Source: Planctomycetota bacterium (lineage in GTDB: Bacteria > Planctomycetota > UBA11346). From it: 64,000 nucleotides of DNA. This document shows, piece after piece, positions 5,573 through 47,885 of this stretch. The position numbers and the translations under genes were made by a program. The stretch lies in assembly GCA_038203025.1 (NCBI GenBank), contig JBBREK010000001.1, positions 6,165 through 70,164 on the forward strand, in the 5' to 3' direction. The stretch's first letter is position 1; each line of letters begins with the position of its first letter. The notes under the pieces are model-generated. The model had not been told where the DNA came from. It saw nothing but the letters and a program-made list of their open reading frames with translations, and ran no database searches.

Positions 5573-6438
5573 GGCCAGTGCGCCAGCCCGGCGACGGCGG
5601 TGCCGGCGGTGAGCAGCTGGACCAGGGCAGCCAGTCCGAGGCAGCGGTTGAGCTCACGGCCACGGCTGGTCCACACCATCGCGGTCAGGGCCAGGCCGCC
5701 GACCAGCGCGACGCCGGCGGCATCGGGGCAGCCGGCCAGCCACCAGGCGGTGATCGCCGCGGCATGCAGTCCCGTATGGTAGATGCGGGTGCCGCGGTCG
5801 CCCAGTCGCACCGCCAGGGTGCGCTTGCCGGTGGCGGCATCGGTGCGCAGGTCGCGCAGGTTGTTGATCGCGATCAGCACGGTGGCCTGCAGCCCCACTG
5901 CGACCGCGGCCGCCCACCAGCCCGGGGCCAGGGGCCAGTGTGGGGCCTGCACCCAGGCCGCGCCGAGCACGGCGACCAGGCCGAAGAAGACCAGGACGAA
6001 GGCGTCGCCGAGGCCGAGGTAGGCCAGCGGCGCCGGCCCAAGAGTGTAGGCCAGCGCCGCGATGACGCTGGCGGCGCCGACCAGCCACAACTGCCAACCG
6101 CTTTGGCTTGCCAGCCAGCCCCCGATCCCGCTTGCCAACAGCAGCACGACGGCTGCGCCGACAAGCATCGCGTGTGGCGTGATCAGGCCGCTGGCGACGG
6201 CGCGCGGCGGACCAAGGCGGTCGGGTGTGTCGGCCCCACGCAGGGTGTCGCCGGCGTCATTGGCGAAATTACAACCGATCTGCAGCAGTATCGCCCCGGC
6301 CAGACAGCCCACTGCCAGGTCCAGGCGCCACGGGCCAGCGGTCGCGGCCAGGGCGGTACCCACCGCCACCGGTGCGAGGGCGGCAGCCAGCGTCTTGGGT
6401 CGGGTGGCCATCAGCCAGGCACGCAGCATGCGTGCCAT
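5569..6438 (-). CDS. menA: 1,4-Dihydroxy-2-naphthoate polyprenyltransferase (UbiA family).
   Basis: Polytopic membrane protein with the UbiA-type Asp-rich motifs (NFANDAGDTLRG, INNLRDLRTD). Its stop overlaps the menC start (ATGA). Confidence 0.8.
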   Translation of the reverse strand: MARMLRAWLMATRPKTLAAALAPVAVGTALAATAGPWRLDLAVGCLAGAILLQIGCNFANDAGDTLRGADTPDRLGPPRAVASGLITPHAMLVGAAVVLLLASGIGGWLASQSGWQLWLVGAASVIAALAYTLGPAPLAYLGLGDAFVLVFFGLVAVLGAAWVQAPHWPLAPGWWAAAVAVGLQATVLIAINNLRDLRTDAATGKRTLAVRLGDRGTRIYHTGLHAAAITAWWLAGCPDAAGVALVGGLALTAMVWTSRGRELNRCLGLAALVQLLTAGTAVAGLAHWP

Positions 6439-21531: not shown

Positions 21532-22392
21532 ATGTCGATTATGATCCATGATGTGTCGTTTCCACTCCAGGGTCACGACGCCGCAGCCCCGGTCCGCGAC
21601 CGGCTGCCGCTGCGACTGATCGAGTTGTCGGGTTGCGCCATCGACTCCCGCTGGGGCGGCGACGACATGACGGCGCCGACCTGGCGGCTCTACTTCGATC
21701 TCGATGATGGGGCCGAGGCCTGGGTGCACGGACGCTGCACCGCGCTGCGTGCCGGCCACCTCTACCTCGTGCCGGCCTGGCTACGCTGGTCTGGACGCTG
21801 CCGGCGGCCGGTCCGTCACTTCAATGCCATGTTCGATCTGCCGGCCCTGCCGCGCGAACGCGTGATGGCGCTGTGTCGGGAGGTCGTGCCGCTGGCCGCG
21901 CCGGGCGATGCCCTGGCTGGCGCCTGGATGGACTGTGCCGTCGCCCAGGCCTCCGTGGCGCAGGCCGGTGCCACGCACATAGCCAACGGCCACGCCGTCG
22001 TCTGGGCTGCGCTGGCCAGGCTGTTCGTCATCCTGGGCGTTGAGACCGACGCTCTGGTGCCGGCCGATCGGCATCACGACTTCGAACGCCTGCGCCACTG
22101 GGTCGAGCAGCGTCTCGACCAGCGTCTGCCACGATCCGCGCTGGCCCGTGCCGCCGGAGTCAGCGAGGCCGAACTGGCCCGTCGTTGCGCCGTGGCACTT
22201 GGCACGTCGCCGGCCCGCTGGCTACGCGACCTGCGTGTGGCGCGGGCGGCCGAGCTGCTGCGCGCCAGCGACGTGCCGATCGAGACGGTGGCGGAGCACT
22301 GCGGCCTGGGCGACCGCAGCCGGTTCAGCAAGGTGTTCGCCCGGGTGGTCGGCTGCGGCCCCGCAGGCTTCCGGCGGCGATTCCGGGGCTAG
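21532..22392 (+). CDS. AraC-family transcriptional regulator, divergent from the fucosidase.
   Basis: C-terminal double helix-turn-helix (LARAAGVSEAELARRCAVALGTSPARWLRDLRVARAAELL...FSKVFARVVGCGPAGFRR). Confidence 0.7.
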   Translation: MSIMIHDVSFPLQGHDAAAPVRDRLPLRLIELSGCAIDSRWGGDDMTAPTWRLYFDLDDGAEAWVHGRCTALRAGHLYLVPAWLRWSGRCRRPVRHFNAMFDLPALPRERVMALCREVVPLAAPGDALAGAWMDCAVAQASVAQAGATHIANGHAVVWAALARLFVILGVETDALVPADRHHDFERLRHWVEQRLDQRLPRSALARAAGVSEAELARRCAVALGTSPARWLRDLRVARAAELLRASDVPIETVAEHCGLGDRSRFSKVFARVVGCGPAGFRRRFRG

Positions 22393-22403
22393 ACTGCGGT
22401 CAG

Positions 22404-23216
22404 ATGCCGCTTCCTCCGAGCACCACGACGCTGGTTCGGCCGCCTGGCGAGGCGGCTCCGGCCAGCTTCCTTGCCATCAGCCGGGTCGAGGCGGCGCAGG
22501 CCGGCGGCTGGGACCGGCATCGCCATGCCGAACACGAGGCCATCATCGCCGTCTCCGGCACCTACCACGGCACCGTGAATGGCAGCGCGGTGATGCTCGC
22601 CCCTGGCGAGGTCCTGGTGGTGAAGCCGGGCGACTGGCACGAGGACAAGCTGCGGCCGGGCACCGTCTACTTCGCCTTGTGGTTCCGACTGCCGGGCGGC
22701 CTGTTCGCCGACGGCGTGGCGGCTGAGCAGCAGGTTTCCCGGCCACCTGGCGAAACGTTGCTCACCGCCGCTCGGCAGCTGCAGGGTTTGATCGGATCGG
22801 GCGCCACCCCGGCGCGGCTGGACGCAAGTCTGTCGGCGCTGATCGGCCAGCTGGTCGACGGCCTGCCCAGCGAGGCCCGTGCCCCGGCGTTCTCCATCGA
22901 TGCCAGCTTCGCCGCCCGGTTGCACACCGTATTCGCTCGACTGCCCGCCGGCAGGCTCTCGACAGCGGCGTTAGCCCAGGCCGCCGGACTCAGCCGCCGG
23001 ACCTTCGAGCGCTGTTGCCGTGACGAACTCGGCTGCGGTCCGGCCGAGGCCTACGCCCGTTGGCGGCTGCGCCGCGCCGGCGAACTGCTGCGTACCACCG
23101 ACTGGCCGGTGCGCGCAGTCAGCGACATCATGGGCTTTGCCAACCCGTTCCACTTCAGCCGCGCCTTCACCCGCCTGCACGGCGCTCCGCCGGCCACCTG
23201 GCGCACGCGGCCTTGA
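22404..23216 (+). CDS. Second AraC-family regulator, tandem to the first.
   Basis: Cupin-like N-terminus, and a C-terminal helix-turn-helix (LAQAAGLSRRTFERCCRDELGCGPAEAYARWRLRRAGELL...FSRAFTRLHGAPPATWR). Confidence 0.7.
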   Translation: MPLPPSTTTLVRPPGEAAPASFLAISRVEAAQAGGWDRHRHAEHEAIIAVSGTYHGTVNGSAVMLAPGEVLVVKPGDWHEDKLRPGTVYFALWFRLPGGLFADGVAAEQQVSRPPGETLLTAARQLQGLIGSGATPARLDASLSALIGQLVDGLPSEARAPAFSIDASFAARLHTVFARLPAGRLSTAALAQAAGLSRRTFERCCRDELGCGPAEAYARWRLRRAGELLRTTDWPVRAVSDIMGFANPFHFSRAFTRLHGAPPATWRTRP

Positions 23217-23864
23217 TCAGGCCAACAGGCCCTTGGTGGACGGCACGCCGGTACCGCTGACGCGGATGGCCTGGCGCAGGGCGCGGGCGAAGGCCTTGAA
23301 GCCCGCCTCGATGATGTGGTGGCTGTTGCGGCCGGCGCGCTGGTGCAGGTGCACGGTGATGCAGGCCTGGTCGGCGAGGGCGCCGAAGAATTCCGGGACC
23401 AGCTCGGTGGCGAGGCCGCCGACTGACGCCGCTGGCGGGGCCAGTTCGTAGGTCAGCCAGCCGCGGCCGCTGATGTCTACGGTCGCCTCGACCAGTGCCT
23501 CGTCGAGCGGGCAGGCAATGTGGCCGAAGCGCTCGATGCCGGACTTGTCGCCGACGGCCTGACGCAGGCACTGGCCGAGCACGATACCGCAGTCCTCGGT
23601 GGTGTGGTGGCCATCGATGTGCAGATCGCCCTTGCACGACAGCCGCATGGTGGTGCCGCTGTGCTTGGCCAGTGCCTCAAGCATGTGGTCGAGGAATCCG
23701 ATGCCGGTGGCGATCTCGCTGGCGCTGCTGCTGCTGCTGCTGCTGCTGCCGCTGCCGCTGCCGCTGCCGCTGCCGCTGCCGCTGCCGCTGCCGCTGTCGA
23801 GATCCCAGGTGGCGGTGATGTCGGTCTCGCGCGTCTTGCGCGTCACGGTCGCGGTGCGGGGCAT
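23217..23864 (-). CDS. hisB: Imidazoleglycerol-phosphate dehydratase carrying a simple-sequence-repeat-encoded (SG)8S8 loop insertion.
   Basis: Has the GIGFLDHML and KGDLHIDGHHTTED...NSHHIIEAGFKAFARALRQA motifs of the dehydratase. The insertion DSGSGSGSGSGSGSGSGSSSSSSSS lies in a loop that is 5-8 residues long in E. coli HisB. Confidence 0.85.
   Translation of the reverse strand: MPRTATVTRKTRETDITATWDLDSGSGSGSGSGSGSGSGSSSSSSSSASEIATGIGFLDHMLEALAKHSGTTMRLSCKGDLHIDGHHTTEDCGIVLGQCLRQAVGDKSGIERFGHIACPLDEALVEATVDISGRGWLTYELAPPAASVGGLATELVPEFFGALADQACITVHLHQRAGRNSHHIIEAGFKAFARALRQAIRVSGTGVPSTKGLLA
23725..23796. repeat. In-frame microsatellite (CTG)8(CCGCTG)8, which is (AGC)8(AGCGGC)8 on the coding strand, inside hisB.
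   Basis: Read directly from the sequence. Confidence 0.9.
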
Positions 23865-26039: not shown

Positions 26040-26263
26040 GTGATTTCTCCCAAAGGGGGAAAGGGTTATGGCACGTCTCTGTATGTGGCATCACAGGGTT
26101 GTCCACAGGAATCCGCAATCGAGGTCGATGGGAGCACGGAAAAAACCGGGCTTGCCGAACAGGCGGGGGCGGGAGAAGCGGAAAATGCAGGCGTGTGGCG
26201 ACCGCCGCCGCCGGCCTCGTCTCCGCTCTTCCGTGTTGCGGGACCTCCATATCCTCACGCGTC

Positions 26264-27163
26264 GTGACCGGTGAACTGCGCAACAGACTGATTTTCGGGG
26301 CGTTTCTTGCCCTCATCGTGTGCGGCCTGGTGGTCGTGGATGTGCTCAGCACCGGCCGCTGGGGTATCCTCGCCCTTGGTCTCCTGGCCGTGTTGCTGGG
26401 CGCGCGCGAGTTCACCCGCCTGGCGCGGGTGCACGCTGCCAGTGTGCGTCTGGCGCCGATGATCGTCGTCTCGCTGGCGCTGGTCGCCGAGGCGCATCTG
26501 CATGTGGGCGGCGCGCTCAGCGGACTGTGGCCCGAGACGACGATGCGTCTGGCGTCGGTGCCGCTGGTGCCGCTGCTGCTTGGTGCCGGACTGCTCTGGG
26601 CGACGCTGTCGCAAATGGCTTCGCGGGCGCCGACCGAGCGCTTCTTCGCCAACGTCGGCGGGTCGCTGTTCGGCATGATCTACCTCGGTTTATGCTTCAA
26701 CCTGCTTGAGCGCCTAGCCATCCTCGGCGAGGTGGGACAGCCGGAGCGGGGCATGCAGCTGGTCGCGTGCTTCCTGGTGGCGGTGAAGTGCGGCGACATC
26801 GCCGCCTTCGTTGGCGGCAAGACCTTCGGCCGGCACAAGATGTGCCCGGCGATCAGCCCGGGTAAGACCTGGGAGGGCTTCGCCTGCAGCTTCGTCGGTT
26901 CGGTCGGTGGCACATTGCTGGTCAGTGGATTGTTTGCGACCTGCCACGTTCCGGTCTTCGCCGGGTGGTGGCAGCCAGTGGTGTGGGGCGTGGTGCTTGG
27001 ACCGCTCGGCGCGGCCGGCGACCTGGCCGAGAGCTGCATGAAGCGCGAGGCGGCGATGAAAGACAGCGGCCGGGGTGCGCCCGGCTTCGGCGGCTACCTC
27101 GACCTGCTGGATGCCATCATTCTGGCGGCGCCGGTGGCCTTCCTGCTGGCGCTGGCGCTGTAG
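26264..27163 (+). CDS. cdsA: Phosphatidate cytidylyltransferase (CDP-diglyceride synthase).
   Basis: Has the SPGKTWEGF and GFGGYLDLLDA signatures and is polytopic. A GTG start at 26264 was chosen, and the start is uncertain. Confidence 0.7.
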   Translation: MTGELRNRLIFGAFLALIVCGLVVVDVLSTGRWGILALGLLAVLLGAREFTRLARVHAASVRLAPMIVVSLALVAEAHLHVGGALSGLWPETTMRLASVPLVPLLLGAGLLWATLSQMASRAPTERFFANVGGSLFGMIYLGLCFNLLERLAILGEVGQPERGMQLVACFLVAVKCGDIAAFVGGKTFGRHKMCPAISPGKTWEGFACSFVGSVGGTLLVSGLFATCHVPVFAGWWQPVVWGVVLGPLGAAGDLAESCMKREAAMKDSGRGAPGFGGYLDLLDAIILAAPVAFLLALAL

Positions 27164-27181
27164 CTGTAGCTGTAGCTGTAG
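27158..27181. repeat. (CTGTAG)4 tandem hexamer covering the cdsA stop, preceded by (GCGCTG)2. It gives four in-frame TAG codons.
   Basis: Read directly: gcgctg gcgctg tag ctgtag ctgtag ctgtag. Confidence 0.9.
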
Positions 27182-27229
27182 CGTCCACTGCGGCTGTTGT
27201 GCGCGCCATCTGGCGCTAGGCTCGACGGC

Positions 27230-28787: not shown

Positions 28788-30536
28788 TCAGCCCATTGCT
28801 TCCAGCCATTGCGCTTCGCTTGTCTCCAGCTCAGCGATGACCACGGCGAGGCGCTGGCCCTGGGTGGCGTCGTAGGTGTGGCCCAGCGAGGCTTCCAGCC
28901 CGGTCTTCTCAGCGGTCAATTCAGCGACGCGCTTCTCCAGCCGTTCAGCCAGGCGCTGCTTCGCCTTGTCCGGCGGCTTGGCGATGGTCTGGGTCTTCGG
29001 CTTCTCCTTCGCCTTCGGCGCTGGCGCCTGGCCGTCGCTTTCGGCCTCCAGCTGTGCGAGGTATTCACCGTAGCCGCCAGGGAACAGGCTGAAGGTGCCA
29101 TTGCCCACTTCGATCAGCCTGGTCGCCACGCGGTCGGTGAACGAACGGTCGTGGCTGGTGAACAGCACGGTGCCGGGGAAGGCGACCAGCGCGTCGGCCA
29201 ACGCCTCCACCGTTTCGACGTCGAGATGGTTGGTCGGCTCATCGAGCAGCAGCACGTCGTACCTGCCAAGCAGCAGGCCGCCCAGGCACAGTCGCGCGCG
29301 CTCGCCGCCGGATAGTATGCCGACCCGCTTCTTCAGGTCGTCGGGGCGGAAGAGCAGGGCGCCGGCCAGGTCGAGGACCTCTTGGCGCGGCGGGTTCTGT
29401 CCCGGCGCCTCGCGGGCGCAGCGGAACAGATGATCCTCGGCGATCATGTCGGCGCTGAAGGCGGTGTAGACGTCCTGGGCGTAGAGCGCCACGCGCAGTC
29501 CGGTGGCCCAGCGGAAGGTGCCCGCGATCGGCGTCAGCTGCCCGGCCAGGGTGCGCAGCACGGTGGTCTTGCCCTGGCCATTGTCGCCGAGCACGGCGCA
29601 GCGGAAACCGCGGTCGAGATCGACGTGGTCGCAGGTGGCGACAGTGCGGCTGCCGTAGCCGACCGCCAGGGCGTCACACTGCAGCGCCCAGCCCTTGCGC
29701 GTCTCGCAGGCCGGGATGCGGATGCGCGGATCGGGGTCGTCGCTCTCGATGTCGAGGAACTGGCCCTGCAGCTTTTCCAGCTCCTTGGCCTTGGACGAGG
29801 CGCGCGTCGCGGTGCTGGCGCGGGCCTTGTTGCGGGCGACGAAGTCCTCCAGCTGGCGGCTTTTGGCGGCGAGGTTGGCATTGGTCGCGGCGTCGGCGGC
29901 GCGGCGTTCGGTCTTGGCGGTTAGCCAGGCCTGCACCCGGCCGGGGAAGCGGCTGATGCGACCGCCCGCCACTTCGATGGTCTGCGGGCAGGTGCGTTCG
30001 AGGAAGCCACGGTCGTGCGAGACGATCAGCCAGCCGCCACGGAAGCCGGCAAGGAAGCGCTCCAGCAGCATGAGCGTGCGCAGGTCAAGGTAGTTGGTCG
30101 GTTCGTCGAGCACCAGCAGATCGGGCTCACGCAGCAGCATGGCGCACAGGCGCAGGCGGGTCTGCCAGCCGCCCGACAGCGACTCGGCCGGCAGGTCGAG
30201 CGTGTCGTTGAAAACGTGGAAGTCGGCGGCGAGCTGGGCGCAGGCCCAGTCGGCCTGGCCGGTGACGCGTTCGAGGTAGGCCAGGGCGGTCTCGCTGGCC
30301 TCGAAACGCTCATCCTGGCGCAGCCAGGCGATGCGGGCGTGGTCGCGGATGATGACCTTGCCGGCATCGAGTTCCTCCTGGCCGAGCAGCAGGCGCAGCA
30401 GGGTCGACTTGCCGCAGCCGTTTCGCCCGATCACGGCGATGCGGTCACGCTCGTCGATCTCCAGGTCGGCCCCGTCGAGGATGTCCTTGGACCCGTAGGC
30501 CTTGTGCAGGTCGAGTGCTTTGAGGATCCAGCTCAT
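28788..30536 (-). CDS. ABC-F family ATPase (tandem ABC domains, no transmembrane domain).
   Basis: Two Walker A motifs (GRNGCGKST, GDNGQGKTT) and two LSGG signatures, separated by a charged linker. Confidence 0.85.
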   Translation of the reverse strand: MSWILKALDLHKAYGSKDILDGADLEIDERDRIAVIGRNGCGKSTLLRLLLGQEELDAGKVIIRDHARIAWLRQDERFEASETALAYLERVTGQADWACAQLAADFHVFNDTLDLPAESLSGGWQTRLRLCAMLLREPDLLVLDEPTNYLDLRTLMLLERFLAGFRGGWLIVSHDRGFLERTCPQTIEVAGGRISRFPGRVQAWLTAKTERRAADAATNANLAAKSRQLEDFVARNKARASTATRASSKAKELEKLQGQFLDIESDDPDPRIRIPACETRKGWALQCDALAVGYGSRTVATCDHVDLDRGFRCAVLGDNGQGKTTVLRTLAGQLTPIAGTFRWATGLRVALYAQDVYTAFSADMIAEDHLFRCAREAPGQNPPRQEVLDLAGALLFRPDDLKKRVGILSGGERARLCLGGLLLGRYDVLLLDEPTNHLDVETVEALADALVAFPGTVLFTSHDRSFTDRVATRLIEVGNGTFSLFPGGYGEYLAQLEAESDGQAPAPKAKEKPKTQTIAKPPDKAKQRLAERLEKRVAELTAEKTGLEASLGHTYDATQGQRLAVVIAELETSEAQWLEAMG

Positions 30537-30590
30537 GCGGGGGGAAGACGTACAGGGGGTTCGGCGGCACGCCAGCCATGGGAAGGCAAA

Positions 30591-30632
30591 GGCGGAAGGC
30601 GGAAGGCGGAAGGCGGAAGGAGGAAGGCGGAT
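30591..30632. repeat. (GGCGGAA)4-6 heptanucleotide tandem repeat in the ABC-F/ndvB divergent promoter. A complementary CCTTCCGCCTTCCG lies 50 nt downstream at 30685..30698.
   Basis: Read directly. Confidence 0.9.
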
Positions 30633-30797
30633 AGAGTTGCTGCGCGCACGACTCCGATTGGGCGCTTGTGGTCATTTCTTCTCCCTTCCGCCTTCCGTCT
30701 ATGGGGGGGAATGACTGATTGTAGCCACGTGGAAAATCCCGATGATTTTACTACCTGTTGCACCTTCGTGCAGGAGACCGGACCAGGAGACGTCGAC

Positions 30798-41557: not shown

Positions 41558-43681
41558 TCACGCCCGCCACCAGCCCAGCCGCAGGCTGTTGCCGACCACG
41601 CATAGTGAGCTGGCGGCCATCGCTGCCGCCGCCCAGGCCGGATCGAGCCGGCCGGTCATCGCCAGGGGGATGGCGCAGAGATTGTAGACGGCGGCGAAGG
41701 CCAGGTTCATACGCACCGTGTGCATGGTGGCGCGGGCCAGGGCGACGGCATCGCCGGCGGCGCGCAGCGGATCGTGGCCATCAAGGATGAGGTTGCCGGC
41801 CAGGGCGGCGATGGTGGCGCCACCGCCGACCGCGGCGCCGGCGCTGGCGCGGGCCAGCATAGGTGCGTCATTGATGCCGTCGCCCAGGGCAAGCACGCGG
41901 TCGCCGGCGGACTCCAGCTGGCTGACCATGCGCGCCTTGCCTTCTGGCGACAGGTCACCGCGGGCATCGCCGATGCCCACTGCCTGGGCCACGCGTCGGG
42001 TCTCGACGGTGCGGTCGCCACTGGCCAGATGCAGCCGCAGACCCAACCCGCGCAGCCGTGCCAGGGCCTCGGTGGCGCCGGGTCGCGGCCCGTCCCCCAG
42101 GCGCAGGGCGCCGATCCAGCGGGCGTTGGCGGCGACGTGGACGACGATGCCTGGTCCGGCCGGATCGCCGGGCGGGGCCGCCGCGCCGCGGTCGGCGAGG
42201 AAGGCGCGACTGCCCACCAGCACCTCGCCGCCATCGACCACGGCGCGCACACCGCCGCCTGGCGTGGCGGCGAACTCCGTGGAGGCCGGCACGGCCAGGC
42301 CCTGCGCTGCGGCAGTGATGGCGGCGGCCACCGGGTGTTCGGAACCGCGTTCGGCCGCGGCGGCGAGGGCGAGGATGGAAGCGCGGTCGCAGCCTGGGGC
42401 GCACAGCACCTCGGCCAGCTGTGGTAAGCCGGTGGTGATGGTGCCGGTCTTGTCGATGACGGCGGCGCGGGCCTGGGCCAGCGATTCGATCACCGTGCCG
42501 TCGCGCACCAGGATGCCGCTGCGTGCCGCCCGGCCGACCGCCACCGCGATCGCGGCCGGGGTGGCCAGGCCGAGGGCGCAGGGGCAGGCGATGACGAGCA
42601 CGCTCAGGGCGGCGATCAGGCCGTGGTGCCAGCCCTCGGCGCCGCCCAACCACCACCAACCGGCCAGAGTGGCGAGGGCCAGGAGGATGGCGGCAGGGAC
42701 GAAGACGCCGGCGACCCGGTCGGCGAGGCGGGCGATCGGCGGCTTGGCGGCAGCCGCTGCGCGCATCGCCTCGGCGATCGCGGCCAGCCGGGTGGCGCCG
42801 CCGGTGGCGTCGACCCGGACGACCAGTGTCCCGAGCCGGTTGATCGTGCCGGCGCTGACCTCATCGTCGACGCGCTTGACCACCGGCATCGGCTCGCCGG
42901 TGAGCAGTGCCTCGTCGACCTCGCCACCGCCTTCCAGCACGGTGCCGTCTGCCGCCACCGCATCGCCCGGCCGCACCCGGATGCGATCGCCGACGCGCAG
43001 TGTTGCGGCGTCGACCAGTTGCTCGCCGTCAGGCCCCAGGCGCAGCGCCTTCGGTGGTTGGCGTTCCATGAGCTCGCGCACGGCGGCGCCGGCGCGCGCC
43101 CGTCCGCCGGCCTCCAGGGCCCGACCAATCAAGGTGAAGGCGATGATCGCAGCGGCGCTTTCCGCGTGCAGGTGCGGCCAGCCCAGGACCAGTCCGACGA
43201 GGCCGTGGATGCAGGCGGTCACTGCGCCCAGCGCCACCAGCAGGTCCATGTCGCCATGCAGGCGCAGGGCCGAGCGGGCCGCGCGCATCACGATGGTCCG
43301 TCCGGGCCAGGCCAGGGCGAGCACGGCCAGCGCAACCTGGATGGCCGGCGAAGCCGGATGATGCGGCGCCGCCATCGCCCAGGTCATCGCCGTTCCGGCC
43401 AAGGCCATTGCGACCAAGGCGCGCAGCCGCGCCGGCCGCGGATCCTCGCCCGGCGTCTCGGCGACATGAACATGGACGGCAAAGCCGAACTTCGCCAGCC
43501 GCTGCTGTACCGCCGCGATGGTCAGCCCGCCGTCGCTGAGCCGCAGCCGCGCCTGCCGCGCGATCAGATCGACGCGCAGTTCGCTGATCCCTGGCTGCGA
43601 CGCCAACGCCGTCTCCATGCGCCGCGCGCACGCCGCGCAGTGCATCCCGTCGGTGACGTCGAGAACAATCTCAGCCGGCAT
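41558..43681 (-). CDS. copA: Copper-translocating P1B-type ATPase.
   Basis: N-terminal heavy-metal-associated domain GMHCAACA, then the CPC (ACPCALGLATP), DKTGTIT, GDGINDAP motifs, and a C-terminal transmembrane segment. Confidence 0.85.
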   Translation of the reverse strand: MPAEIVLDVTDGMHCAACARRMETALASQPGISELRVDLIARQARLRLSDGGLTIAAVQQRLAKFGFAVHVHVAETPGEDPRPARLRALVAMALAGTAMTWAMAAPHHPASPAIQVALAVLALAWPGRTIVMRAARSALRLHGDMDLLVALGAVTACIHGLVGLVLGWPHLHAESAAAIIAFTLIGRALEAGGRARAGAAVRELMERQPPKALRLGPDGEQLVDAATLRVGDRIRVRPGDAVAADGTVLEGGGEVDEALLTGEPMPVVKRVDDEVSAGTINRLGTLVVRVDATGGATRLAAIAEAMRAAAAAKPPIARLADRVAGVFVPAAILLALATLAGWWWLGGAEGWHHGLIAALSVLVIACPCALGLATPAAIAVAVGRAARSGILVRDGTVIESLAQARAAVIDKTGTITTGLPQLAEVLCAPGCDRASILALAAAAERGSEHPVAAAITAAAQGLAVPASTEFAATPGGGVRAVVDGGEVLVGSRAFLADRGAAAPPGDPAGPGIVVHVAANARWIGALRLGDGPRPGATEALARLRGLGLRLHLASGDRTVETRRVAQAVGIGDARGDLSPEGKARMVSQLESAGDRVLALGDGINDAPMLARASAGAAVGGGATIAALAGNLILDGHDPLRAAGDAVALARATMHTVRMNLAFAAVYNLCAIPLAMTGRLDPAWAAAAMAASSLCVVGNSLRLGWWRA

Positions 43682-43716
43682 GCCGGTACGTTAGGCAGCG
43701 CGCAGCCCCTGCCAGT

Positions 43717-43848
43717 GGGTTTGGGTTTGGGTTTCGGTTTCGGTTTGGGTTTCGGTTTGGGTTTCGGTTTCGGTTTCGGTTTCGGTTTCGGGTTCCGAGC
43801 CCCAATCCCCAATCCCCAATCCCCAATCCCCAATCCCCAATCCCCAAT
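43717..43848. repeat. Compound microsatellite of 12 copies of (GGTTTS, a mix of GGGTTT/CGGTTT) at 43717-43788, followed by (CCCCAAT)7 at 43800-43848. It lies in the 334-bp leader/intergenic region upstream of copA.
   Basis: Read directly. Confidence 0.9.
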
Positions 43849-44015
43849 CCCAGATGGTCGGGGTACGCCGTCCGGGGAGTGAGCGACCAAGCGCGTGGCG
43901 ATCGATAGGGCCAGCGTGTGTGGTAAGTTCCACGCGCGCGTAGCGAGCCTGGAGCGACCCCCGCCGCCTGGCGAATCGACGCGCGTATGCGCGGCGTGTC
44001 GAGCGGGGTCCGGGG

Positions 44016-47000
44016 TCAAGGCCCCGGCGGGGGGCCTGGGGGGCTTGGCCCCCCAATCCGATAGCCCGTTACGGCGCCCGTCTGATCCGCAATCACGACC
44101 ACCCCCGGCAGCAGCAGCGGCGGGGTGATGGCTGGGGCGCCATGGGCGATGCGACGCACAGTCTGGCCGTCAGCGAGGCGGATGACGGTGATGCCACCGG
44201 TGTCGTCGGCGATGGCCACCAGGCCGCCACCGAGGCCGACCTGCAGCGGCTTGCCTAGGATTTTGCTCCGCCAGCGCGGCTTCACCGGGTCAGTTGCCCA
44301 GGTGGCGATGTCGACGGCGCGGTCGGCACGGGCCAGGACCACGGTGTCGCCACTAGCGGCAGGTACGGCTGGACCGGCCTCGGTCAGCCAGGGGTGCGGC
44401 TGCAGGACGGCGCCGGATTTGCCCAACTGGATCAGATCGACGCCGGCGACGGTGGCGACCAGCAACCGTCCACCTGGCAGTTCGGCCCAGGGGCCGGTGC
44501 GCGCTGCCTTCAGCGACAGGCGTTCGGATTCGCTGCCGTCCTCCTCAATCACGCGCACGGTCAGGTCGTCGATGACGACCAGTTTGTCGTCGCTGCGGCG
44601 CAGCAGCGGCTGGGCGGTGCCGGCGACGCCGGGCAGCCGCCAGATTTCGCGGGCGCCATCACGGGCGATGACCGCGCGGCCACCGGGGGCGTCCTCGATC
44701 GATACGGTGAGGCGTCCACCGGCTCGGTAGACCAGTTCGATGTCGAGCAGGGCGAGCGGCGCGCCGGCCAGGCGACGCACTGGCACGGCACGGTCGAGCG
44801 TGGGCAGGATCTGGCGCTGTTCGCCGTCGGTGGTGGCGAAGGTCCAGCCGCCTTCGACCGCGAGCCACCATGGGACCAGGGTCGTACCCGGCAGGGTCAG
44901 CGGCCGGATCGCCCCCGAGGCGGTGTCGATGGCGGTGGCGCCGTCGGCAGACAGCACCACCACCGCGGACGCGGCCGGGTGCAGACGGATCCACGCCGGT
45001 CGCGTCGCCGGGGCCGGCAGGCGCCACACCGGGGCGGGGCCGAGCGTCACGTCGAGCACGCGCTCGGCGGGATCGCTGGCCGCGGTCACGACGATGCGGC
45101 GGGTGGCGTAGCCCGGGGTGCCGACCTCAAGCTGGATATCTGCCGTCGCCGAACGGCAGAACCGCCCATCCTTCCCCACCAGCTCGACGTCGTTGGCCAC
45201 CAGGCGCATGGTCGGCAGCGCCGTGCCGGTGTCGGCGTCGGTGGCGCGCACCCGTCCCGGCAGGGGCAGCCCGGCGATCAGGCTGCTGGTACGTGGATGG
45301 TCGGCGGAGAAGCGCGCCGCCAGGTCGAGGGCATCTCCGTGACGGCCCTGTCCGCGCGCGGTGTCGATGGCCGAGCGCGCGGTGGCGGCCTGCGCCAGCC
45401 GGCTCTGGGCATCGGCAAGAATCGCCGCCGCCTGTGCATCGGCAACCAGCGGCCTGGCCGCGGCTACGACCTGGTCGAGGGGTGTGGCGGCATCGGCGGC
45501 CAGCCGGGACAGCTCGGCGAGAGCGGTGGGGCTGGCGGTGGATTGGGTCTTGGTTGGCGGTGGCCTGGAACTGCGCGGCGGCGCGGGCTCATCGGCTTGA
45601 CGTTCTGCCGAAGCTGCAGCGGCTGCAGCGGCGGGCACCTCGTAGCCGCGCCGGAACAGTATCCGGTACCACATCCAGCCGCCCTGATTGGCGGCGGCGA
45701 ACTCGCGCAGCCGGTGGCTGCGATCGGCCGGGTCGGCGAGGCTCTCCAGGCGGGTGCGTTCGCGTTCGGCTAGCAGGTTGTGGACCACCGGTGGCCAGAT
45801 CCACAGGTTGACGCCAAGCAACGCGGCGCTGATCGCGCCGATGAGCAGGCCGCGCAGCCGCCGCCGCGAGCGGGCCCGGTGCGCCGCATCCTGGGCCAGG
45901 TTGGCGAGCCGACGGCTCTCGCCGGTATCGCGAGCCAGTTGCGAGGCGCGCTTCCACTCGCCGGCGGCGACCTCCCAGCTGCCCGAGGCGGCGAGGCGTT
46001 CGGCGCCGGCGGCGATCGCCGCCACCTCGGCCTTCAGACCACGTTCGCGGGCGCGATCGATGGCGCCGGCTGACAGCGCGCTGGAGCTGGTGCCGCCCTT
46101 GCGCTCGCCGGGCAATGGTGTGGCCATGCCGGGGAAGGGGGTGGCGAGGGTCGGCGGAGGCACCACCTGCGAACCGCTGGCGGTCGACAGCGGTGTGCGC
46201 GGACTGCGCGACCCGATGGCTGGGGCCTGGGCGGTGCGCGACCCGATGGCCGGGGCTGGTCCGGTCCGCGATCCGATGGCTGGGGCCGGTCCGGTGCGTG
46301 ACCCGACGGCGGGGGTGGGGCCGGCGTGCGGCGGCGACACTACTACGGCATCGATCGGGCGCAGCCAGTCGGGGATGACCGGTGGTGCGCCCGGGTCCGG
46401 CGAGGCGGTGGGCGCCGGCACGGTGCGCTGCCGTCCAGATGGCTTGGCCCCGGGGATGGGGGCGCCGGCGCCGCTGGGCAGGTCCGAGGTCGGGGCGGCG
46501 CGCTTGCCCGAGCTGCCCTGGCCGGTGGCATGCTGCACCAGGGCGCGGATCGGACCGTTGGTCTTGCGCAGCACCGAGGCGGTGCCGGTGAGCGCCACAA
46601 GCAGCTTCTCGGCATCATCGATCAACTCGCGCAGTTCGAAGCAGCGGTCGTCGGGTTTCTTCGCCATCATCCGGCGGACCAGCGACTCGACCCGCGGGTC
46701 GAGGTCGGCGCGGTATGTGCGCAGGCTCGGCACCGGATCGACCTTGTGCTTGAGCATGATGCTGAACGGGGTTTCGCCGTCGAACGGCAGGTGCCCGGTG
46801 AGCATGAGGAACGCGGTGCAGCCGAGGTTGTAGACGTCGCTGCGCGTGTCGACCTCGACGCCGTCGCACTGCTCTGGGCTCATGAACGCCGGGGTGCCGA
46901 CGCGCACCCCGACCGAGGTCACCTCGGAGTCGCCGGCGCTGCCCTTGGCCAAGCCGAAGTCCGAGACCTTGCAAAGACCGCTGATCGCGACCATCAGGTT

Positions 47001-47885
47001 GTCGGGCTTGATGTCGCGATGGATCACGCCCTTCTCGGTCGCCTGTTCGAGGCCGAGCAGAGCCTGGCGGAGGATGTCGAGGGTCTCGATCTGCGACAGC
47101 GTCGGCTGGCGCCGCAGCACCTCGCCGAGGTCCCAGCCGTCGACGTACTCGATCACCATGAAGTAGACGCCGAGCTGGGGATCGTCACCGAAATCGTAGA
47201 TCTGCAGGATGTTGGCGTGATTGATGCGCGCCAGGCTCTTGGCCTCGCGCTCGAAGCGCTGGATGAAGTTGCGATTGCGCGCCAGCTCGGGCGGCAGGAC
47301 CTTGATTGCGACGCTGCGGTCGAGCGACAGCTGGCGGGCGTGGTAGACCGCGCCCATGCCGCCCTCGCCGAGTTTGCGGTCGATCTGGCAGCCGCGCAGG
47401 ACGCGGCCGATCAGGCGGTCGCCGCCGCCCGCGCCGCCAGGGGTCAGGCGGCCAGTGGAGCGTTGGAAGCTGGTGCCGCAGGCCGGGCAGTTCTGCTCGT
47501 CGGCGCCGGGCGACCCGACGAAGCCGTGTCCGCACACCGGGCAGCTGGCCTTCTCGCCATGCAGGTTGTCGGTCGACGGGCGGAAGGCGAGTTCGCTGAC
47601 CGGCAGGGGGCTGCGCCCGTCGCGGGCCGATTCCTGTTCCAGCCGGTCGAAGGGCAGGTTGCCGGGCGTGGACGACCTCGCCGCCGGCTTCGGCCTGGGC
47701 GGGGCGCGCCGCTGGGTCAGCGGAGCGGGCGGCACGGCGCCGTCCTCGACCGGCAGGTATTCATCGCTGCTCTGCCCTGGCATCCAGTGGTGGTTGCAGC
47801 TTTCGCAGATGACCGTTGTGCCGGCCTCGATCGGCCCGGGATGGGCCGACCGGCAACGTGGGCAACGATGGACGGAGACGGTCAT
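44016..47885 (-). CDS. Large Ser/Thr protein kinase of 1289 aa. It has N-terminal zinc ribbons, a kinase domain, Pro-rich decapeptide repeats, a transmembrane helix and a C-terminal beta-propeller-like extracytoplasmic region.
   Basis: Two CxxC..CxxC ribbons. Kinase motifs GEGGMGAVYHA, HRDIKPDNLMV, DFGLAKG and SPEQ. (GPAPAIGSRT)x4 repeats. The C-terminus has periodic repeats like VVIADQTGAVTGYRI. Confidence 0.75.
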   Translation of the reverse strand: MTVSVHRCPRCRSAHPGPIEAGTTVICESCNHHWMPGQSSDEYLPVEDGAVPPAPLTQRRAPPRPKPAARSSTPGNLPFDRLEQESARDGRSPLPVSELAFRPSTDNLHGEKASCPVCGHGFVGSPGADEQNCPACGTSFQRSTGRLTPGGAGGGDRLIGRVLRGCQIDRKLGEGGMGAVYHARQLSLDRSVAIKVLPPELARNRNFIQRFEREAKSLARINHANILQIYDFGDDPQLGVYFMVIEYVDGWDLGEVLRRQPTLSQIETLDILRQALLGLEQATEKGVIHRDIKPDNLMVAISGLCKVSDFGLAKGSAGDSEVTSVGVRVGTPAFMSPEQCDGVEVDTRSDVYNLGCTAFLMLTGHLPFDGETPFSIMLKHKVDPVPSLRTYRADLDPRVESLVRRMMAKKPDDRCFELRELIDDAEKLLVALTGTASVLRKTNGPIRALVQHATGQGSSGKRAAPTSDLPSGAGAPIPGAKPSGRQRTVPAPTASPDPGAPPVIPDWLRPIDAVVVSPPHAGPTPAVGSRTGPAPAIGSRTGPAPAIGSRTAQAPAIGSRSPRTPLSTASGSQVVPPPTLATPFPGMATPLPGERKGGTSSSALSAGAIDRARERGLKAEVAAIAAGAERLAASGSWEVAAGEWKRASQLARDTGESRRLANLAQDAAHRARSRRRLRGLLIGAISAALLGVNLWIWPPVVHNLLAERERTRLESLADPADRSHRLREFAAANQGGWMWYRILFRRGYEVPAAAAAAASAERQADEPAPPRSSRPPPTKTQSTASPTALAELSRLAADAATPLDQVVAAARPLVADAQAAAILADAQSRLAQAATARSAIDTARGQGRHGDALDLAARFSADHPRTSSLIAGLPLPGRVRATDADTGTALPTMRLVANDVELVGKDGRFCRSATADIQLEVGTPGYATRRIVVTAASDPAERVLDVTLGPAPVWRLPAPATRPAWIRLHPAASAVVVLSADGATAIDTASGAIRPLTLPGTTLVPWWLAVEGGWTFATTDGEQRQILPTLDRAVPVRRLAGAPLALLDIELVYRAGGRLTVSIEDAPGGRAVIARDGAREIWRLPGVAGTAQPLLRRSDDKLVVIDDLTVRVIEEDGSESERLSLKAARTGPWAELPGGRLLVATVAGVDLIQLGKSGAVLQPHPWLTEAGPAVPAASGDTVVLARADRAVDIATWATDPVKPRWRSKILGKPLQVGLGGGLVAIADDTGGITVIRLADGQTVRRIAHGAPAITPPLLLPGVVVIADQTGAVTGYRIGGPSPPGPPPGP
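46206..46325. repeat. Four tandem ~30-bp repeats inside the kinase gene, coding the decapeptide repeats GPAPAIGSRT.
   Basis: gcgcgacccgatggctggggcctgggcggt appears four times with drift. Confidence 0.7.

Follow-up and report, generated by a model that had tools for sequence, protein, structure and literature searches.

Long insertions in imidazoleglycerol-phosphate dehydratase (IGPD) are known from fungi. In the cryo-EM structure of the yeast enzyme (Rawson et al. 2018, PDB 6EZM), a 24-residue insertion is found between β2 and β3. It lies beside the C-terminal loop, which it has been proposed to stabilise, and fungal hairpin insertions of this kind comprise 24-42 residues on the outer face of the 24-mer (PMC5828572). 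Here we describe an insertion at the same hairpin, and in the same register, in the hisB product of a planctomycete, which is encoded in the window, i.e., the whole 64-kb stretch of DNA that was analysed. Both inserts follow an L-(D/K) pair, and that of yeast ends before the I-x-x-x-TGIGFLDHM strand. The 6ezm sequence is identical to the N-terminus of Saccharomyces cerevisiae His3, and its E14-T15...L23-K24 aligns with E13-T14...L22-D23 of the window protein. Since L23-K24 of yeast is paired with L22-D23, the first residue of the yeast insert, G25, is equivalent to S24. In a separate register check with phmmer, 6ezm residues 45-58 were placed opposite window residues 41-54. Because the registers match, the planctomycete tract sits where a long outer-face insertion is already known. 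The sizes are also similar (24 residues in yeast, up to 42 in other fungi, and 24 in the window protein, where the net gain is 21). However, the fungal insert is common across fungi and is complex and partly ordered, with an extra β-strand and a conserved charged motif plus a Gln that touch the C-terminal substrate loop, whereas the window insert is a pure (SG)8S8 segment that is predicted to be disordered, is encoded by a perfect microsatellite and is found in a single bacterial genome. Neither the conserved acidic motif nor the Gln-bearing β-strand of fungi is found in (SG)8S8, for which AlphaFold2 (AF2) gives no strand and a pLDDT below 50. Thus, the two insertions share a site and are non-homologous.

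Short tandem repeats within bacterial genes have been described as well. In the GC-rich species Burkholderia mallei and B. pseudomallei, the number of in-frame simple sequence repeat (SSR) units changes between close strains (PMC1343551; PMC6749651). The 3-, 6- and 9-bp coding arrays used there as VNTR typing loci resemble the hisB tract as GC-rich, short-unit arrays in genes in which slippage gives in-frame indels. The well-studied examples are mostly in pathogen genes with surface, virulence or unknown functions, whereas the window array, a compound tri- and hexanucleotide tract of 24 codons, lies in an environmental planctomycete and in an enzyme of core amino-acid biosynthesis. Phase-variable contingency loci offer a further likeness, that of a long perfect microsatellite inside a gene with a high expected slippage rate. 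Because the units of the hisB tract are 3 and 6 bases long and lie in frame within the coding sequence, they would cause no frame shift and no on/off switching, and we rejected an assignment to this class. Short-repeat dynamics that lengthen low-complexity coding segments, as outlined by Persi, Wolf and Koonin (PMC10120016), are similar in kind; in its outline that study is a genome-wide statistical description, whereas the window provides a single extreme case with a mapped position and a polymorphic counterpart in a sister population. In prokaryotic coding regions, trinucleotide repeats are strongly avoided and longer units are not (PMC4060949). Given this avoidance, the persistence of a 24-codon tract may need more than neutrality.

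The repeat tract and the gene that carries it

The compound repeat at 23724..23795 in hisB comprises 72 bp, which are in frame and have zero interruptions by regex search and codon table (Table 1). The + strand reads (GCT)8 and then (GCCGCT)8, and the coding (minus) strand reads (AGCGGC)8 and then (AGC)8. In its sense-strand context, GAC (AGC GGC)8 (AGC)8 GCC AGC GAG encodes D23, (SG)8, S8, A48, S49 and E50. Tandem Repeats Finder (TRF) reported 23727-23796 with a period of 6, 11.7 copies and 98% matches. The initial annotation had noted an in-frame 72-bp tri/hexanucleotide microsatellite within hisB, and this is confirmed as a perfect repeat. Three details are corrected. The tract lies one base further left than 23725-23796, the order given as (AGC)8(AGCGGC)8 is reversed on the coding strand, and the insertion consists of 24 Ser/Gly residues (S24-S47) rather than 25, the latter count having taken in the conserved D23.

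Table 1. Coordinates of the hisB features in the window and of near-identical hisB genes on contigs of a related planctomycete
Feature	Position	Strand	Details
hisB CDS, monofunctional imidazoleglycerol-phosphate dehydratase	23217..23864	-	215 aa; ATG at 23862-23864; range includes the stop codon; from the ORF list
Hairpin upstream arm, residues 14-23 (TDITATWDLD)	23796..23825	-	AF2 β-strand 14-21 and the conserved L-D preceding the insertion
(GCCGCT)8 hexanucleotide array, (AGCGGC)8 on the coding strand	23748..23795	-	(Ser-Gly)8, residues 24-39; perfect; regex and codon table, TRF period 6
(GCT)8 trinucleotide array, (AGC)8 on the coding strand	23724..23747	-	Ser8, residues 40-47; perfect; regex and codon table
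Hairpin downstream arm and first metal-site motif, residues 48-61 (ASEIATGIGFLDHM)	23682..23723	-	AF2 strand 50-52, then the invariant GIGF-DHM
hisB, related planctomycete, L088	599-1195
hisB, related planctomycete, L090	1001-1591
hisB, related planctomycete, L091	546-1136
hisB, related planctomycete, L092	394-984
hisB, related planctomycete, L093	1001-1609

A tract of this length is well beyond chance expectation. Among perfect tandem stretches with a period of up to 6, the longest to arise when the window was simulated 100 times with a first-order Markov model was 22 bp (mean 15.5), as against 52 bp for the stretch that covers the hexamer part. The AGC array belongs to the CAG/CTG class of repeats, and both strands of the tract can fold into an imperfect hairpin of the usual CNG type, in which two pairs form per triplet. 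Their folding energies, -17 to -19 kcal/mol per strand, are no better than those of composition-matched shuffles (z = +1.3 and -0.2), and the 5' region of the hisB mRNA has no unusual structure (z = +1.6). The idea of a special nucleic-acid structure of the tract was dropped, as the folding energies match those of the shuffled controls. We also set aside the antisense poly-Ala, poly-Leu/Pro and poly-Cys/Arg open reading frames over the tract, which are by-products of 70% GC and the repeat, and the matches to Pfam 'Serglycin' and FEA1 and to linker-containing chains in the PDB, which are low-complexity noise from the Ser/Gly tract.

Outside the tract, the protein is a canonical IGPD by Pfam, equivalog models, motifs and predicted fold, as had been proposed at the outset. 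PF00475 (IGPD) matches residues 53-196 over its full length (model positions 1-144/144) with E=6.4e-61 and 205 bits (cut-off 27), and the NCBIfam HisB equivalogs are passed despite the insert (NF002111, 239.8 bits with a cut-off of 231; NF002114, 219.6 bits with a cut-off of 189). The metal and substrate motifs D59-H60-M61, D84-G-H86-H87-T-T-E90, H182-H183-I-I-E186 and P208-S-T210-K211-G212 are present. All columns that are invariant in a 47-sequence alignment are kept, including DHM, D-x-HH-x-x-E, HH-x-x-E and the C-terminal PSTKG loop. Identity outside the tract is 86-90% to the nearest proteins in a collection of 5.8 billion, which are 194-aa IGPDs from Planctomycetota metagenome-assembled genomes (MAGs). 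Nei-Gojobori dN/dS between window hisB and three relatives is 0.12-0.19, and that of an insert-free pair of relatives is 0.17. Judged from its sequence, hisB shows no sign of decay.

The gene is solitary, without a his operon, and its neighbours are AraC-type regulator genes and a UDP-sugar pyrophosphorylase-like gene. Orthologues in relatives are solitary too, with GGDEF genes on their flanks, and synteny with the window is not conserved. Directly downstream of hisB, two tandem AraC-family ORFs lie on the opposite strand (21532..22392 and 22185..23216, together 21532-23216); by its listed start, the second would reach ~200 nt into the first, and this start has probably been placed too far upstream.

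The hairpin site in structure, orthologues and a related population

The tract is framed by invariant residues, which are W20, L22 and D23 in the upstream arm of the hairpin and G54, I55, G56, F57, D59, H60 and M61 in the downstream arm. The AF2 model of the window HisB has a pTM of 0.82 and a core pLDDT above 90, and residues 27-45, between strands 14-21 and 50-52, have a pLDDT below 50 and are without secondary structure. A Foldseek search of the PDB with this model gave IGPD structures for all of the best 29 matches, with a TM-score of ~0.9 (target-normalised) and E down to 1e-21, and the model has the IGPD fold of a four-helix bundle between two four-stranded sheets. The model predicts that the tract forms a disordered extension at the tip of the N-terminal β-hairpin. 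The initial annotation had suggested a surface loop, to be placed on a structure model; the predicted position agrees with this, and the hairpin is the one whose fungal insertion lies on the outer face of the 24-mer by cryo-EM (PMC5828572).

In orthologues, the loop between WDLD and ASEI has three residues, AAG or TSG (e.g., WDLD-AAG-ASEI and WDLD-TSG-PVTV), and not the 5-8 given previously, so the net gain in the window protein is 21 residues (24 vs 3). This is also seen in the ET-to-DH spacing, for which each sequence set has its own count origin. The window protein is 21 residues above the norm, and 119 of the 120 listed homologues have a spacing of 29-34 in that scan's count (-1 to +4 of the norm), the remaining one being N-terminally truncated and left out. 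In the 80 genome loci, spacing is standard with essentially no exception; the long spans in this set are regex artefacts caused by upstream ET/ES dipeptides, with zero real insertions by eye. Loops are short in the four metagenome contigs that were fetched via the conserved upstream flank.

We found no such 24-residue tract in the 119 listed close homologues whose sequences extend over the N-terminal region, nor in 150 cluster representatives, 80 loci from genomes and 4 from metagenomes. The repeat-junction pattern TGGGAYCTSGACAGCGGCAGCGGC had no match in JGI metagenomes, and the exact window HisB protein and two neighbouring proteins are absent from the public collections searched. Among the matches listed in the genome contig scan, the nearest species representative is 66% identical. 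Among thousands of IGPDs, the tract is by these comparisons confined to a single genome. The alignment with orthologues that had been proposed as a check therefore upholds the claim of a lineage-specific insertion derived from pure tri- and hexanucleotide repeats, since it is not seen in the homologue, locus or cluster-representative sets. At the same codons, the orthologue in L003 has ACC AGC GGC, which contains one AGC-GGC unit, and that in L001 has GCC GCC GGC GCC AGC. These codons are a plausible proto-repeat for slippage.

Two proteins with a low-complexity insert of about +20 residues at this hairpin, P0125 and P0219, were found by a full HMMER scan over 1.84 billion cluster representatives. 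P0125 (L089 147-941) is a distant IGPD whose insert is rich in Pro, Ala, Gly and Thr and is encoded by partly repetitive CCC-GGA-ACC codons, and a second long insertion is found later in the protein. P0219, which is also distant, has a Ser-rich insert and a long N-terminal extension.

Length alleles were found in a related planctomycete population. The protein P0072 is 73% identical to the window protein, and its loop, ATATATATGT, is encoded by a perfect (GCCACC)4 at the same codons. Outside the loop, P0072 is identical to P0271, with which alone it shares its 90%-identity cluster, and to P0065, the representative of a separate cluster. Five contigs from five samples (L088 and L090-L093; Table 1) differ at 0-6 of 567 nt outside the hisB loop and at 0-7 of 300 nt upstream, and their hisB genes are 99-100% identical elsewhere than in the loop. 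The loops themselves fall into three alleles of 8, 10 and 14 codons that differ in the number of GCC-ACC units. Length change by slippage without a frameshift, as the initial annotation had predicted for the window gene, is thus seen at the homologous site of a relative. Thus, slippage-driven length polymorphism of the hairpin loop is real in this clade, as observed in a related population and not in the window's own, and the IGPD hairpin is a recurrent and polymorphic insertion site in planctomycetes.

Origin of the tract and competing explanations

The G+C content of the window is 69.8%, and it contains five perfect SSR arrays that reach 21 bp or more within its 64 kb, as compared with seven in 929 kb of comparison loci, five of the seven being heptamer arrays in planctomycete loci. 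The source organism therefore appears to be prone to microsatellites. Within the coding regions of the window, only the hisB tract is a microsatellite with a unit of up to 7 bases.

Several other repeats were noted. A 30-bp unit is repeated 3.7 times with 80% matches at 46205-46315, within the ORF of a 1289-aa Ser/Thr kinase (44016..47885, - strand), and presumably encodes a decapeptide repeat. Between this kinase gene and a heavy-metal P-type ATPase gene (41558..43681, - strand), two adjacent microsatellites occupy 43716-43851 in the intergenic gap 43682-44015, downstream of the former gene and directly upstream of the latter. They consist of an imperfect array (GGGTTT/CGGTTT) of ~13 units, followed by (CCCCAAT)7.4, which is perfect. 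On the sense strand of the ATPase gene, they read (ATTGGGG)7 and (GAAACC)n and are G-quadruplex-capable, and they are candidates for promoter or 5'UTR effects that depend on repeat number. Upstream of an ABC-F type ATPase gene (28788..30536, - strand), at a distance of 45-95 nt, there is a (GGAAGGC)7.4 heptamer array (30581-30631), with an inverted copy of its motif (CCTTCCGCCTTCC) ~60 nt beyond the array, at ~30683-30698. At 27145-27182, (GCTGGN)2-3 is followed by (GCTGTA)4. These repeats begin in the final codons of a CDP-diglyceride synthase-like ORF (26099..27163, + strand), so that the end of this ORF has four consecutive in-frame CTG-TAG units, i.e., tandem stop codons. In the planctomycete MAG locus L004, (GATGTCC)x4 at 5798-5824 and its near reverse complement (GACATCG)x4 at 5910-5936 form a long-range inverted pair of microsatellites within 200 bp upstream of the hisB start (6001).

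We regard it as highly probable that the IGPD is functional and that the tract results from a recent expansion by slippage at a hairpin that faces outward and tolerates insertions, the tract being probably near-neutral and probably variable in length. This agrees with the overall interpretation in the initial annotation, each testable part of which held with the small corrections given above. The starting point would have been the hairpin-tip codons of the clade, which are GC-rich, cryptically repetitive and encode small residues. One AGC-GGC unit and an adjacent AGC could then have been amplified by replication slippage to (AGCGGC)8(AGC)8, and the reading frame would have been kept in every slippage event because the units are 6 and 3 bases long. 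By homology to the solved structure, the hairpin tip should face outward from the 24-subunit particle, so the 24 added Ser/Gly residues are expected to form a disordered loop that leaves the fold, the Mn sites and the assembly undisturbed. The perfect purity of the tract suggests that it is young or continually homogenised by slippage. Since the nearest relative of window hisB is at a dS of ~0.4, the expansion cannot be dated, and we infer its recency and polymorphism in the window lineage. In its own population the tract is expected to be length-polymorphic, with a fitness effect that is probably close to neutral or slightly deleterious, and it would persist through a microsatellite-prone genome and a permissive site and not through a task of the loop.

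Alternatively, the loop could be functional and under selection, in that it tunes catalysis or inhibitor binding like the 'latch' proposed for yeast, or has another role. Variants of this explanation include Ser phosphorylation or glycosylation sites, altered solubility or interactions of the particle, and repeat number as a tuning knob. It would fit with the yeast insertion at the same position, which adjoins the C-terminal loop as a proposed stabiliser, with the recurrence of hairpin insertions in fungi, P0125, P0219 and the polymorphic planctomycete population, and with the intact purifying selection on the rest of hisB; a large Ser/Thr kinase gene in the same window is circumstantial. However, the tract is of pure low complexity without a conserved motif, whereas the fungal inserts keep a charged strand and Gln46, and it is, as far as the sets searched extend, unique to one genome among thousands of IGPDs. 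AF2 shows no structure in it, and the purity of the repeat fits recency over long maintenance. In addition, the related polymorphic loop uses Ala and Thr, which argues that no particular chemistry is conserved. We therefore consider a selected loop improbable, and that the outer hairpin of Planctomycetota IGPD acts as a selected 'tuning knob' is a long shot. If this were true, variants would change how efficient the enzyme is as a catalyst, its sensitivity to inhibitors or the way the surface of the 24-mer behaves, and a core biosynthetic enzyme would vary within populations in a heritable and reversible manner.

A sequencing or assembly artefact could also explain the tract or its length, e.g., if a low-complexity stretch was mis-extended or collapsed or if a chimeric join fell within the repeats. 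The allele is a singleton with no independent record in the collections searched, and low-complexity GC-rich repeats are error-prone on some sequencing platforms. Against this, the hisB frame continues exactly on both flanks, the protein aligns end to end with its orthologues, and there are exactly 8+8 units with zero stray bases. Ordinary reads are longer than 72 bp, and assemblers tend to collapse repeats, not to create them. Several further clean microsatellites are present in the same window, and a smaller hexanucleotide array is found at the same codons in the independently assembled contigs of a relative. An artefact thus seems quite unlikely. It is very unlikely that hisB is a redundant or decaying paralogue whose insertion is tolerated since another IGPD gene does the work: though the gene lies outside a his operon among AraC-type regulator and UDP-sugar pyrophosphorylase-like genes and only 64 kb of the genome are in view, orthologues in relatives are equally solitary, so a solitary hisB is the normal state in this clade, dN/dS does not exceed the value for insert-free relatives, no catalytic or invariant residue has been lost, the PSTKG loop at the C-terminus is likewise intact, and the HisB equivalog cut-off is passed despite the insert.

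Implications for IGPD and for planctomycetes

Coding SSRs and a hairpin insertion in IGPD were both known already, and the tract is a variant of both. Nothing suggests new biology beyond its use as a permissive site, as a marker and in inhibitor studies, and it is most likely a harmless product of replication slippage. It nevertheless represents a clean natural case of a long perfect microsatellite that survives in a bacterial core metabolic enzyme, where trinucleotide repeats are normally strongly avoided. For strain typing of uncultured planctomycetes, the tract is a convenient marker locus. IGPD is a target of herbicides and antimicrobials, and inhibitor potency is influenced by the loop in yeast, so a variable loop could matter for inhibitor studies. 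Taken with the fungal insertion, the alleles of the sister population at the same hairpin make this a natural permissive position in IGPD, which could serve for loop grafting or for tagging of the 24-mer.
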